Assembly: GCA_965238005.1 (NCBI GenBank)
Contig: OZ250165.1
Location: forward strand, 1,120,001-1,184,000
Length of the DNA stretch: 64,000 bases
Direction of reading: 5' to 3'
Origin: Longimicrobiales bacterium
Lineage (GTDB): Bacteria; Gemmatimonadota; Gemmatimonadetes; Longimicrobiales; Gaopeijiaceae
Position numbers and translations under genes: made by a program. The notes under the pieces are model-generated. The model saw only the letters and a list, made by a program, of their open reading frames with translations. It was not told the origin of the DNA and searched no databases. Shown here one piece after another: positions 15,024 to 19,196 of the stretch (its first letter is position 1; each line of letters starts with the position of its first letter).

Positions 15024-15779
15024 TCATACCATGAGGTCTCCGCCGGTGATGTCGTAGGCGGATCCGGTGATGTAGCCCGCCGCCTCGGAGGCTAGGAAGC
15101 AGACCAGGTCGCCTACTTCCTCGGGCCGACCCAGGCGCCCGAGGGGGAAGCTGGTGCGGTAGGCTTCCAACCGCTCGGGCATCGTGTTCTCGTGGGCCAT
15201 CTCGGTGTCGATGAGACCCGGGCAGACGGCGTTCACGGTGATGCCGTGGGGCGCTAGCTCCAGGGCCGAGGCTCGGGTGAGGCCGAGGACGCCGTGCTTG
15301 GACGCGGTGTAGTGGGCCCCACCCAGAGTGCTCACCGTTTTGCCGGCCGTAGAAGAGAGGTTCACGATGCGGCCGTACCCCTCCCTTTTCATCGGATCGA
15401 TCACGGCCTGGGTGCAAAAGAACACGCCTGTGAGGTTCACATCGAGGGTCCGCCGCCACTCCTCCTCGGAGATCTCCTCCAGCGGCGTCGGGAAGAGGAT
15501 CCCCGCGTTGTTCACTAGGATGTCGAGGCGCCCGAAGCGGTCCAGAGTGGTGGCCACCATCTCCCGGACGGCGTCCGACGAGGTCACGTCTGCCGGGGTG
15601 GGCAGCACATCTTCCCCCAGCTCCTCGGCCACCCGGCTCGTGGCCTTGGGATCCAGGTCGTTCAGCGCCACGGACGCGCCCAGCTCGTGGAGGCGCCGGG
15701 CGATGGCCCTACCCACGCCCCTGGCAGCCCCGGTTACCAGCGCGACGCGAGCGTCCATTCGGCTGACGACGCTCTCCAT
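15024..15779 (-). CDS. SDR family oxidoreductase (FabG-like)
   Basis: TGAARGVG, NNAG, YTASK, VNAVCPG motifs; GGAGG RBS. Confidence 0.92.
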   Translation of the reverse strand: MESVVSRMDARVALVTGAARGVGRAIARRLHELGASVALNDLDPKATSRVAEELGEDVLPTPADVTSSDAVREMVATTLDRFGRLDILVNNAGILFPTPLEEISEEEWRRTLDVNLTGVFFCTQAVIDPMKREGYGRIVNLSSTAGKTVSTLGGAHYTASKHGVLGLTRASALELAPHGITVNAVCPGLIDTEMAHENTMPERLEAYRTSFPLGRLGRPEEVGDLVCFLASEAAGYITGSAYDITGGDLMV

Positions 15780-15790
15780 GGATCCTCCGT

Positions 15791-15902
15791 GTTCGAGATC
15801 GACCGGGTGCGAGATCGACGCTGTTCGAGATCAGCCCCATGCGAGACTAGCCCTGTGCGAGGTCAGCCCCGTGCGCGATCGGCCCCGAGCGAGATCGGCC
15901 CG
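15791..15902. repeat. Seven degenerate tandem 16-bp repeats (consensus ~GTGCGAGATCRGCCCC)
   Basis: Units start at 15791, 15807, 15823, 15839, 15855, 15871 and 15887. Confidence 0.85.
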
Positions 15903-16127
15903 CGTCGTCCACTCTGGCGAAGTGGCACTTATGATGCCCGTGGGCCGCCACCGGCGCCACCCCCGCCGCCACGGGGGGGCGAGCGGGGTTCGCTCAGCCG
16001 ACGAGCTCCTGAGGCAAACAGTTTCCGACGCTGGCCACGGGACCCGAACGGGGGCATTATTGACACCCTTTCCGGGTCAGCCCACCTCAGCGTGGCCCGA
16101 CCCTCGGCTCTTATTTCGGATGGAAGG

Positions 16128-16919
16128 ATGGCCATGGCAGAGTCGCCGCATGGACGCTTCGTCTGGTACGAGATGCTCACGGTGGACAAAGGCCCCACGA
16201 TCGACTTCTACAAGGAGGTCGTCGGGTGGGGCACGCAGGGTTGGGAGGCCGGCGAGCAACCCTACACCATGTTCACCATCGGCGAGGCCCCGGTGGGAGG
16301 AATCATGGATCTTCCCGAGGAGGCCAGGGCCGCAGGCGTCCCTCCGCACTGGCTGGCGTACGTCTCCACCTCCGACACGGACGCCACCGTCGAGCAGGCC
16401 AAGGAGCTGGGCGGCCAGGTCCTCATGGAGCCCATGAGCGTCCCCGAGGTGGGACGCATGGCCGTCCTGCGCGATCCCCAGGGAGCGGAATTCGCGGTCT
16501 TCACCGCCGAGGCCGACTCGCCGGGGCGCGATGGGCCGCCCCAGCTCGGCGAGTTCTCGTGGCACGAGCTCGCCACGTCCGACTATGAGGCCGGCTTCGA
16601 CTTCTACTCGGCCCTGTTCGGATGGGAGAAGACCACTGCGATGGATATGGGCGAGATGGGCGTCTACCAGATGTACGGGAGCGGGGAGTACGAGTTGGGG
16701 GGCATGTTCAACCTGCTTCCCGAGATCCCCACGCCCCCCCACTGGCTCCTGTATGCCAAGGTGCCCGACGTCGAGGCTGCCGCCGAGACCGTGAAGTCAC
16801 TGGGCGGCCAGGTGCTCAACGGACCCATCGACGTGCCCGGCGGGGATCGGGTCGTGCAGTGCATGGACCCCCAGGGGGCGGCGTTCGCGCTGCACTCGAG
16901 TGGAGGTGTACAAGCGTAG
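16128..16919 (+). CDS. Two-domain VOC/glyoxalase family protein
   Basis: GRFVWYEM, PPHWLAYV, GRMAVLRDPQGA repeated as WHELAT...DPQGAAFAL. Confidence 0.9.
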   Translation: MAMAESPHGRFVWYEMLTVDKGPTIDFYKEVVGWGTQGWEAGEQPYTMFTIGEAPVGGIMDLPEEARAAGVPPHWLAYVSTSDTDATVEQAKELGGQVLMEPMSVPEVGRMAVLRDPQGAEFAVFTAEADSPGRDGPPQLGEFSWHELATSDYEAGFDFYSALFGWEKTTAMDMGEMGVYQMYGSGEYELGGMFNLLPEIPTPPHWLLYAKVPDVEAAAETVKSLGGQVLNGPIDVPGGDRVVQCMDPQGAAFALHSSGGVQA

Positions 16920-17334
16920 GGGCCACGGTCCCTCTTGCATCGATCGAGGCGGCGCCTGCCGAGGGGGAACTGGTTTGGCCTCCCCAACAGGTGGCGGCAG
17001 TGCGCCTGCCAGCCGAAGCACGGGAGAGCGTCGGCGTAGACCATCTGGGCATCAATGGGAGGTCCACGGGCACCCTCCCGCCTTGTTCTTGACGCCTCAC
17101 TCGGGGCGGTGGTGAGGCTGGTCGACGCGCGCATCGTGGGTGGGAGATAGAGGGGAGTCCGAGCCGAAGGAGCCCGGTTTCCGGTTTACGAGGCGCACTC
17201 CCAACGCCCGACATCGATTACATTAGCGCGGACCTGAGTGATCTGACGGTGACGGACCCTCACTCTGTCCGGCTCGTGGACAGCCTGGTCTCGAAAGGCC
17301 GGTAACCGACGCCTCAACGGAGGTGCTCCCCTAA

Positions 17335-18750
17335 ATGCAGGTGCAGCCTACGCCAGTCGTGCTCCTCTAGGCGGACATCAGCGGGTACACGCGGTTCATG
17401 CTCTCCCACGAGAAGGCCCTGGCCCACAGCCAGATGATCATCGGAGAGCTGATGGAGACTCTGATCCGGGAGATCGAGTTTCCTCTGGAGCTGGTGGAGC
17501 TCGAGGGCGACGCGCTGTTCATGTACTCGCCCAAGACGACCACTGCCGAGGCGTGGGAAGGCCGGAGCCGACGGCTGGTCGAGCGCGTGCTGAGGCTATT
17601 CCAGGTCTTCGGCCGTCGTGTGGCCGAGATCGAGGCCTACAGTGTCTGTCGCTGTCCTGCGTGCTCCAACCTCAAGGAGCTGAAGCTCAAGGTCGTCGCT
17701 CACTCCGGAGAAGGGCTCCTCACGAAGGTGGGGAAGTTTCCGGTGCTCTCGGGCGTGGATACCATCAAGGCGCACCGGCTCCTCAAGAATTCGGTGGAGG
17801 CGGACCAGTATGTGCTGATGACCGAGTCCGCCCATCGTGATCTCCGTTTTCCCGAGGGCGCGGAAATCGAAGAGAGCGTCGAGGACTACGACATCGGGAC
17901 CATGAAGACGTACCTGTACTTCCCGGAGGAGTCCTACCATCTCGATGAGGAGGTGATCCGAGGGTCCTTCTCCGACTCCAACGTGGCCGTGCAGATTCTC
18001 CGTTATGAGGTTCAGCGGGAATACACGGAGGTGGCGAGCGACCCCTCTCGGGGCTTCCACTTCAACACGGGACTGGCAGCCACCGAGATGACGGAGTACG
18101 ACCCGGAACTGGTGGGCCGGATCCCGGAGAGCGTCGTGGCATCGTTCGCCGGGATGGGAAACCCGTTCAGCCTTGGAGAGCTCAGCGCAGGGGAGTACGT
18201 CGTGGACGTCGGTGCGGGAGCGGGGCTGGACACGCTGATCGCCGGGGAGATGGTGGGCCCTGACGGAATGGTGATCGGTGTGGACATGACGGCGGCCATG
18301 ATCGAGAAGGGCAGGGCGGCTGCGACCGACATGGGGATTGACCAGGTGGAGTTCCGAGAGGGTTTCGCCGAGTCGCTACCCGTGCCCGACGAGTGGGCAG
18401 ACGTCATCATCTCCAACGGTGTGGTGAATCTGGCTCCTGACAAGTCACTGGTCCTCAAGGAGATGTTCAGGGTGCTACGGCCAGGAGGCCGACTGCAGAT
18501 CGCGGACATCACGGTCTCCAAGGCCGTTCCGGAAGGAGCGAAACGAGACATCGACCTCTGGACCAACTGAATCGCGGGAGCTCTGCTCGAGACAGAGCTC
18601 CAAGCCACGGTCGTGGCCGCGGGGTTCGAGGACTTCGAGGTGACCTGGAGGAAGAACGTCTTCGAGGGTGCCCTCCGCCCCAGCAAAGAGGCGAAGGCTT
18701 TCGGTATCATGGGAGTGAATTTCCGGGCGTACAAACCGGCGGCATTGTGA
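17335..18750 (+). CDS. DUF2652 (cyclase-like)-SAM methyltransferase fusion; candidate selenoprotein (UGA 18568-18570); also has an in-frame TAG at 17368-17370
   Basis: GGAGG RBS and ATG 17335 give MQVQPTPVVLL*ADISGYTRF; EGDA and CRCPAC; MTase DVGAGAG, ISNGVVNL. DLWTN-UGA-IAGALL continues 59 codons to a TGA at 18748-18750 that overlaps the next start codon. Confidence 0.8.
18577..18601 (+). promoter_or_regulatory. Candidate bacterial SECIS hairpin
   Basis: Perfect 9-bp stem GGAGCTCTG/CAGAGCTCC with loop CTCGAGA, starting 6 nt after the UGA. Confidence 0.65.
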
Positions 18751-19196
18751 TGGATGGATTGGAACCACTTTGGACTTGCCCCAAGTGCGGGGGGCAGTTC
18801 GTGACCGAAAATCAGTGGCACTCCTGCGGGGAGGTCACTCTCGGACAATGGCTCGACGACCTGGGCCCCCGCGGCCTGGCCCTCTATAACCGCTTCGAGC
18901 AGATGATCGCCGCATGCGGCGAGTACCACGTGGCTCCTGCCAAGACCCGCATCGCCTTTCTAGGCCGGGTGCGTTTCGCCACCATCACCAAGATCTCGGA
19001 AAGAGGGATGACGTGGTCTTTTGCTCTGCCCCACGCCCTCGAGTCCGACCGCATCGATCGGATCGAGGAGGTGGTGTCGGGGTGGTACGTCCACTGGGTG
19101 AATGTCGTCGACTCCACTCAGCTCGATGCCCAGACCGAGGAATGGATCGAGGAGAGCTATCGGCTCATCGGGATGCAAGAACGCTTGAAGAGGTAG
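18750..19196 (+). CDS. DUF5655-like protein with N-terminal CxxC...HxC motif
   Basis: WTCPKCG..QWHSC..KTRIAF..RVRFA..WIEESY; TGATG overlap with the upstream read-through ORF. Confidence 0.7.
   Translation: MDGLEPLWTCPKCGGQFVTENQWHSCGEVTLGQWLDDLGPRGLALYNRFEQMIAACGEYHVAPAKTRIAFLGRVRFATITKISERGMTWSFALPHALESDRIDRIEEVVSGWYVHWVNVVDSTQLDAQTEEWIEESYRLIGMQERLKR

Follow-up and report, generated by a model that had tools for sequence, protein, structure and literature searches.

The gene described here lies on a 64,000-nucleotide (nt) stretch of DNA from a Longimicrobiales bacterium (the window; C1:1120001-1184000 of the 4.84-Mb single-contig genome G000) and encodes an N-terminal DUF2652 domain fused to an ArsM-like methyltransferase. 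That the in-frame UGA (codon 412 of this gene) specifies selenocysteine (Sec) in the gene family, which is widespread and so far misannotated, is very well supported by comparison with relatives, although the protein itself is a prediction. The window copy also carries an in-frame TAG at codon 12 and is most likely a very recent pseudogene, at best N-terminally truncated, and we estimate the probability that the TAG is a real disabling mutation at about 0.7. What is new is the domain architecture and the subfamily assignment within the known Sec-ArsM kind of selenoprotein, here in a probably dead copy.

Read from ATG 17335, the frame encodes MQVQPTPVVLL, the TAG (17368-17370) and then ADISGYTRFMLSHEK... 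as far as DIDLWTN and the TGA at 18568-18570, after which the same frame continues with IAGALLETELQATVVAAGFEDFEV...GVNFRAYKPAAL (IAGALLETELQ...FRAYKPAAL) for 59 codons to the TGA at 18748-18750. Internal stops occur at two codons only, 12 (TAG) and 412 (the Sec-UGA), and the uninterrupted open reading frame (ORF) under translation table 11 is 17398-18570. An earlier reading of the window from its letters alone (the first-pass annotation) had described the TGA at 18568, the 59-codon continuation and the TGATG overlap with the next gene, all of which are correct on re-reading of the sequence. It had also started the gene at ATG 17335, a start that is severed by the TAG, which it did not report (MQVQPTPVVLL, stop, ADISGYT).

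Predicted selenocysteine at the in-frame UGA

The codon at the UGA site was surveyed in the DNA of 83 loci, of which 80 come from metagenomes and 2 from genomes, the remaining one being that of the window. All 58 readable loci, the window included, have TGA at the site, with 24 of the 83 ending short of it and one reading N. The frame after the UGA stays open for 55-73 codons in each of the 54 loci with a complete end, and the ratio of nonsynonymous to synonymous substitutions (dN/dS) of this extension relative to the window is 0.10-0.25 in all seven comparisons made, with dS > 1, which supports purifying selection on the extension. At the aligned codon in 49 genome loci there are 19 TGA and 27 TGC/TGT codons, with three loci uncovered. 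Homolog pairs with Cys in one member and UGA in the other, which the first-pass annotation had proposed to look for, are present, including 3 Cys against 19 TGA within the SFAG/SNG subfamily described below. These comparisons show that intact members are predicted to be read through the UGA to a protein of ~470 amino acids (aa). The junction between the two domains, a further point raised in the first-pass annotation, is upheld by dozens of relatives in which a single frame runs through both domains.

The database homologs (120 among the matches listed) contain both domains, yet cover just 85-87% of the query, and the C terminus is DLWT[N/H/G] in eight of eight homologs fetched and in 17 of 17 database rows of alignment A1. 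When Cys forms were sought with the C-terminal 68 residues, a search that reaches relatives sharing short exact words, no protein of 252-804 aa was found at E <= 0.001, consistent with the close relatives all being cut at the UGA.

The genome contains the machinery needed to insert Sec. The tRNA-Sec scores 71.5 bits, with the anticodon TCA assigned by ARAGORN, and the scores of the three protein genes are 556 bits for selA, 328 bits for selB and 371 bits for selD; all four genes are over their family cut-offs. The first-pass annotation had named the absence of this machinery as a point that would refute its reading; selC, selA, selB and selD are all present. The selD gene (G000:C1:578521-579441, outside the window) itself has one in-frame TGA, indicating that selenophosphate synthetase is also a selenoprotein in this genome.

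The SECIS-like hairpin

The perfect 9-bp hairpin reported in the first-pass annotation 6 nt past the UGA was found again, and it resembles a selenocysteine insertion sequence (SECIS). In the family, the hairpin has an 8-bp core stem beginning 9 nt past the UGA and a GGA or CGA triloop 17 nt past it, with stems ranging from 8 to 11 bp. Covariation was analyzed in an alignment of 44 distinct sequences. At pair 15-29, 32 of these have U-A and the other 12 have G-C, with no sequence unpaired, and at pair 19-25 there is one G-C swap. Hairpin cells are paired in 84% of cases, compared with 32-59% when the partners are slid, and the covariation score was matched by none of 500 shuffles. The fold energy of the 81-nt stretch alone is unexceptional (z = -1.3), and the support for the hairpin comes from conservation and covariation, not from the fold energy of a single sequence. 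Published rules for the bacterial SECIS (bSECIS), as far as seen in PMC13188914, call for a stem of 4-16 bp, a loop of 3-9 nt with a G as its first or second nucleotide, a location 16-37 nt after the UGA and a minimum free energy of <= -7.5 kcal/mol. The family consensus hairpin agrees with the structural part of these rules.

The minimum-energy fold of the window hairpin has a 9-bp stem, no G in the first two loop positions and a loop 15 nt past the UGA. If the loop is taken as a CGA triloop instead, a U.G pair and a C.A mismatch lie under it, the mismatch where the family has a C-G pair, and the window is one of 3 sequences among the 44 that are unpaired at pair 19-25. Compared with the same-genus genome G002, the apex has changed from CTT GAA GCG to CTC GAG ACA, giving the C.A mismatch at pair 19-25. 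The predicted SECIS apex of the window copy appears weakened. A second small hairpin directly after the SECIS-like stem is kept as GGCCACGGUCGUGGCC in closer relatives, where it encodes A-T-V-V-A, and is not found in the more distant clades.

Probable decay of the window copy and loss of the gene within the genus

Between the TAG and the invariant DISGYT motif there is a single codon. In the region of codon 12, genome G001 of the same genus reads CTCCTCTTGGCGGAC and the window CTCCTCTAGGCGGAC, in an otherwise identical context, and the leader and start of G001 are as in the window. Close relatives at >=90% identity have the N terminus MQVQPTPVVLFL[AV]DISGYT, and the other full-length members of the 90% cluster of the window ORF (P0001 and P0126-P0130) have an intact start followed by 411 aa to the UGA. 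A reading of the TAG as pyrrolysine was rejected, as the best PylS match in the genome scores 23 bits against a cut-off of 178.

The gene is also disrupted elsewhere in the genus. In G001, aa 1-133 are joined in frame to aa 445-471 with the remainder deleted, and in G002 just aa 361-471 are left, directly after the upstream region. Further damaged alleles include a related allele with a 59-aa deletion (P0121 on 6 contigs and P0002 on 2 contigs) and P0122, a 195-aa ORF of the methyltransferase part only. Two further members of the fusion family, both metagenome loci, are broken as well: L083:1501-2865 has four extra stops (TAA, TGA, TAG and TGA) and degraded motifs, and L076:1501-2862 has a single TAG at residue 65. 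Because of the TAG at codon 12, the weakened SECIS apex and the deletions in two same-genus genomes, the window copy is probably a pseudogene, and the full-length selenoenzyme is probably not made from it. The Sec reading of the first-pass annotation hence stands for the family, for which 58 of 58 TGA codons, Cys homologs, the hairpin, the machinery and the conserved extension speak, and is not supported for a ~470-aa selenoenzyme made from the window copy, which carries the TAG. Should this reading hold, the genus would present a selenoprotein gene in the course of being lost, by a nonsense codon in one genome and by different deletions in two others.

The methyltransferase domain and its subfamily

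The methyltransferase domain matches Pfam Methyltransf_31 with 98.1 bits over residues 273-403 of the read-through protein. ArsM chains in the PDB (5evj, E 1.7e-25; 4fr0 and 4kw7, E 7e-24) align to residues 239-424, across the UGA. The likeness to solved ArsM/AS3MT proteins, which include the Cyanidioschyzon enzyme CmArsM (4fr0 and 4kw7), the Chlamydomonas enzyme (5evj) and 8xt7, deposited as an arsenite methyltransferase, extends over ~185 residues with E values of 1.7e-25 to 3.7e-21. CmArsM binds As(III) through Cys-72, Cys-174 and Cys-224. Whereas these solved proteins have Cys at 72, 174 and 224, the equivalent residues of the window protein are Met, Gly and Sec. At the UGA site the solved chains have the Cys of E-C-L-x-G-A, and they have GCG and SNC where the window protein has GMGNP and SNGV. 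This mapping of the three ArsM cysteines agrees with the one proposed in the first-pass annotation. The alignments show Sec to be the sole remaining active-site chalcogen predicted for the methyltransferase domain. If the reading holds, it is of chemical interest that, of the three active-site cysteines of ArsM considered here, the subfamily described next keeps just one, mostly as Sec.

Motif classification of 47 loci at these three positions, with one locus partial, resulted in two groups. Canonical ArsM-type loci (24 of 47) keep all three cysteines (G-C-GNP, SN-C-V and C-xx-GA). The other 22 loci have SFAG-[T/M/V]-GNP together with SN-G-V, and at the third position 19 of them have TGA and three (L028, L030 and L046) have Cys. 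One of these Cys loci, L030, comes from an unpublished genome (G025), and the Sec/Cys pairing holds without it. The window protein is of the SFAGxGNP / SNG / U type. It scores 218.7 bits against the NCBIfam ArsM model NF008823, below the cut-off of 263, and its methyltransferase part is the only part to match the NCBIfam fusion models NF041537 (226.6 bits, cut-off 510), NF041536 (216.2 bits, cut-off 575) and NF047649 (216.9 bits, cut-off 460). Because it falls below the NCBIfam ArsM cut-offs and lacks two of the As(III)-binding residues, the predicted methyltransferase, while of the ArsM fold, is assigned to a distinct subfamily outside the canonical arsenite methyltransferase family.

The genome contains a second, apparently intact member of this kind outside the window. 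It is a stand-alone SFAGxGNP / SNG methyltransferase on the minus strand (G000:C1:3644285-3644932), which has an in-frame TGA (…DPKLWAA-U-IGGALLEGE…) and is 44% identical to the methyltransferase domain of the window gene. A hairpin with a GGA loop follows its UGA at the spacing seen in the fusion family.

The N-terminal DUF2652 domain

The N-terminal domain matches Pfam PF10851 (DUF2652) over the whole profile (positions 1-118 of 118) with 91.2 bits against a cut-off of 22.1 and an E value of 6e-26; Guanylate_cyc is not among the Pfam matches of the read-through protein. The first 200 residues were modeled with AlphaFold from a 68-sequence alignment that includes stand-alone DUF2652 relatives, resulting in a predicted local distance difference test (pLDDT) score of 87.6 and a predicted template modeling (pTM) score of 0.84. 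A Foldseek comparison of this model with the PDB gave 23 matches at E <= 1e-3, of which those displayed are all adenylate or guanylate cyclases with template modeling (TM) scores of 0.54-0.68, for example 3et6_A (E 8.5e-5, TM 0.64) and 2bw7_B (TM 0.68). The profile match, model and structural matches confirm the prediction of a DUF2652 domain with the class III nucleotidyl-cyclase fold and bear out the first-pass annotation, which had recognized DUF2652 here from the ADISGYT and EGDA motifs and noted a CxCxxC cluster in addition.

Invariant in all 68 N-terminal domains are DISG.T, GDA, the cluster Cys-93, Cys-95 and Cys-98 (CxCxxC) and His-111, and the two putative metal-binding aspartates, of DISGYT and of EGDA, are likewise invariant in 68 of 68. 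An hhalign comparison with the true cyclase domain of a neighboring gene, a weak match with a probability of 30%, pairs DISGYT with DIEGST and EGDA with TGDGA and places CxCxxC within a 13-residue gap relative to the true cyclase. In the same weak alignment, the transition-state Asn of the cyclase motif ALNRAARLL pairs with the invariant Ile-132 and the Arg with Arg-136, and the cyclase Asn position therefore seems to be lost, and the Arg kept, in the DUF2652 domain.

DUF2652 (PF10851) proteins have been predicted to be class III nucleotide cyclase-like proteins (PMC4886424), and the window domain resembles them in its Pfam match above the cut-off, its class III fold and both metal-Asp motifs. 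As far as that paper was seen, its DUF2652 proteins are single-domain proteins of ~250 aa from Actinobacteria, Bacteroidetes and Proteobacteria, with one fusion to a polyketide cyclase domain. The window family differs from them in being fused to a Sec methyltransferase, and the word "methyltransferase" is absent from the paper.

Weighing of alternative explanations

The simplest alternative is that TGA 18568 is an ordinary stop, with a family protein of ~411 aa and the downstream 59 codons untranslated. This agrees with the annotation of all listed database entries, among which P0079 has the NCBI name "DUF2652 domain-containing protein." It does not account for a frame that stays open in every complete locus at such low dN/dS, for Cys at the aligned site of homologs, for an ArsM fold that extends past the UGA, for a hairpin with compensatory changes 3' of the UGA or for Sec machinery in the genome, and we consider it extremely improbable. 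A further alternative accepts Sec and takes TAG 17368 to be an assembly base error, so that an intact gene would encode the full DUF2652-methyltransferase selenoprotein from ATG 17335. The lesion is a single base (TTG compared with TAG), the remainder of the gene is intact, members of the cluster at ~90% identity have intact 411-aa N termini, and comparison with the G001 and G002 remnants gives a low dN/dS. Set against this, same-genus divergence amounts to a dS of 0.08-0.15, and the error rate of a polished single-contig assembly is usually far below this value, making a real difference much the likelier source of the TAG. Selection on the gene is also visibly relaxed in the genus, as the different deletions in G001 and G002 and the further truncated or deleted alleles indicate, and the exact 390-aa ORF is recorded as P0124 on 2 contigs, which are possibly copies of one assembly. 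A base error is accordingly rather improbable in our view. It is also unlikely that the TAG is real and translation restarts at Met-22 to give a ~450-aa selenoprotein with a working methyltransferase and a crippled cyclase-like domain. The ATG at 17398 is in frame and opens the ORF of the gene caller, the methyltransferase domain, UGA, hairpin and extension are intact, and the subfamily includes Sec methyltransferases that stand alone, of which this genome encodes one. On the other side, no Shine-Dalgarno-like motif was seen 5' of 17398, the first strand and the invariant DISGYT Asp would be missing from the product, which would likely be misfolded, the hairpin apex is weakened and relatives are losing the gene altogether.

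The reading that we prefer, a Sec family with a recently disabled copy in the window, has several points against it. Leaving the TAG aside, the gene in the window is intact over 459 codons, with no frameshift, and the dN/dS values to the G001 and G002 remnants are 0.22 and 0.17, on just 12 and 17 substitutions, which are too few to decide pseudogene status. These low values indicate that inactivation, if any, is very recent. A restart at Met-22 could give a methyltransferase-bearing product, and the genomes compared appear to be metagenome-assembled, with their deletions taken as assembled. No Rfam family reaches its gathering score in the window, and near the hairpin there are just chance-level matches. 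There are no arsenic or selenium genes among 148 flanking ORFs from 19 family loci or among the window neighbors. Lastly, the substrate, the role of the cyclase-like domain and a metal at CxCxxC are matters of inference only.

Proposed mechanism and function

In the mechanism we envisage, Sec would hold a soft atom or group beside the methyl group of S-adenosylmethionine (SAM) for methyl transfer, and the substrate would be a metalloid or chalcogen species that needs just one protein ligand. The cyclase-like domain may bind a nucleotide and a metal and regulate the methyl-transfer chemistry or couple to it. Because ArsM binds arsenite through at least two cysteines, free arsenite is an unlikely substrate, and the suggestion in the first-pass annotation of a substrate other than arsenite appears reasonable. 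More tentatively, the SFAGxGNP / SNG / U subfamily, whether stand-alone or fused to DUF2652, might constitute a distinct class of selenoenzymes that methylate one-ligand substrates through a single Sec, with the fused cyclase-like CxCxxC domain sensing or gating the reaction. We regard this as possible but doubtful. Candidate substrates would then be, for example, species of selenium, sulfur or tellurium, or a metalloid that already carries methyl groups. If such a class exists, it would link second-messenger-type signaling to chalcogen or metalloid methylation.

Relation to known selenoproteins

Publications on Sec-containing ArsM date back to 2008 at the latest (PMC2398784). In the parts seen of a 2026 review, Table 1 includes Sec-ArsM (PRK11873/NF008823) as a prokaryotic selenoprotein family with the motif UxxG (PMC13188914), and Sec-ArsM is in a table of PMC9312934 as well. 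The window protein resembles Sec-ArsM in its methyltransferase fold, in Sec at U-I-A-G (the Cys-224 position of CmArsM) and in the hairpin after the UGA. It differs in scoring below the NF008823 cut-off, in lacking equivalents of the canonical Cys-72 and Cys-174 and in its N-terminal DUF2652 domain, published Sec-ArsM having been compared by description only. The review also lists the fusions ArsM/AhpD (NF041537), ArsM/DUF2284 (NF041536) and methyltransferase/UXPK-star (NF047649), credited to Haft and Tolstoy (2025, mSystems). These three families, which give the best NCBIfam matches of the methyltransferase part, share with the window family an ArsM-like methyltransferase, Sec at UxxG and a fused second domain. 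According to the part of the review that was seen (PMC13188914), they have 2-3 Sec residues, with the extra ones in the partner part. In contrast, the partner in the window family is an N-terminal DUF2652 domain without a second Sec, and the scores against the three models are far under their cut-offs.

The first-pass annotation knew of no description of this fusion, and none turned up in our literature searches, whose coverage does not include Haft and Tolstoy (2025). A full-text search for "DUF2652" returned two papers, neither of them on selenoproteins. As annotated, the family entries are ~411-416 aa long, end in DLWTN and are without both the residue of the active site and the final strands of the fold; if the reading holds, recognition of the Sec codon would correct these database entries. 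Labels of "arsenite methyltransferase" on genes of the subfamily may, if the reading holds, be wrong, and a different methylation chemistry is possible.

Table 1. Sequence features of the DUF2652-methyltransferase gene, with positions in the window
Feature	Position	Strand	Basis or remark
GGAGG, Shine-Dalgarno-like motif	17319..17323	+	Read from sequence; 11 nt 5' of the ancestral ATG 17335
Whole gene, ancestral ATG to final TGA	17335..18750	+	471 codons plus stop; extent as in intact relatives
In-frame TAG at codon 12, probable disabling nonsense codon	17368..17370	+	Leu in relatives; TTG in G001
DUF2652, predicted class III nucleotidyl-cyclase-fold domain (ADISGYT...EGDA...HRLLKNS)	17371..17970	+	Pfam, AlphaFold, Foldseek, hhalign
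First in-frame ATG after the TAG (Met-22)	17398..17400	+	Sole possible restart; opens the gene-caller ORF of 390 aa
CxCxxC cluster (CRCPAC; Cys-93, Cys-95 and Cys-98 in 459-aa numbering)	17647..17664	+	Invariant in 68/68; inserted when compared with true cyclases
ArsM-like SAM methyltransferase domain, with the 59 post-UGA codons	18085..18747	+	PDB ArsM alignments, Pfam
Met of GMGNP, at the Cys-72 position of CmArsM	18154..18156	+	Alignment to solved ArsM; T, M or V in the subfamily
Gly of SNGV, at the Cys-174 position of CmArsM	18418..18420	+	Alignment to solved ArsM; Gly in the subfamily
UGA, read as Sec in the family, at the Cys-224 position of CmArsM	18568..18570	+	Alignments, codons of relatives
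SECIS-like hairpin, 9 bp, loop CUCGAGA	18577..18601	+	18577-18585 with 18593-18601; 7-nt loop; stem starts 6 nt past the UGA
Second small hairpin, GCCAC GGUC GUGGC	18604..18617	+	Directly after the SECIS-like stem; closer part of the family only
Final stop TGA overlapping the next ATG (TGATG)	18748..18752	+	Sequence; next gene is the DUF5655 protein, 18750-19196

Distribution and gene neighborhood

Among 251 genomes sampled from the phylum, the full-length fusion is found in G000 only, and the stand-alone Sec methyltransferase in seven others. Named records with the fusion are metagenome-assembled genomes of Longimicrobiales, Gemmatimonadota and Acidimicrobiia, and in a metagenome scan 523 stretches encode relatives, a count that includes stand-alone DUF2652 proteins. 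In the neighborhood scan, 8 of the 19 loci (L131, L135, L137, L139, L142, L145, L147 and L151) have a truncated hemoglobin (Bac_globin) gene immediately upstream, in the same orientation. These loci belong to one clade, ~50% identical to the window, with ...DLWAG-U-IAGA at the Sec site. Within the same clade, 4 of the 19 loci have a PQQ_2 beta-propeller gene downstream. Genes with Cyclase and AAA_16 domains are nearby in 2 of the 19 loci. The neighbors in the window are an SDR protein, glyoxalases, a DUF5655 protein, an M14 peptidase and a TPR protein. With no conservation beyond one clade, the gene neighborhood is uninformative as a clue to function.

The G+C content of the window, taken in 2-kb windows, is 62-69%. 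The gene that follows (18750-19196) encodes a DUF5655/YjbR-like protein, and its TGATG arrangement is kept in both same-genus genomes despite the deletions upstream. Between the glyoxalase-domain gene (15687-16919) and the ancestral ATG lie ~415 bp (16920-17334) with no credible ORF. The last ~100 nt of this interval, which in one frame read ...DIDYISADLSDLTVTDPHSVRLVDSLVSKGR and then a stop, are also conserved in G001 and, with its frame changed, in G002, and they resemble either a conserved leader or what is left of an older gene.

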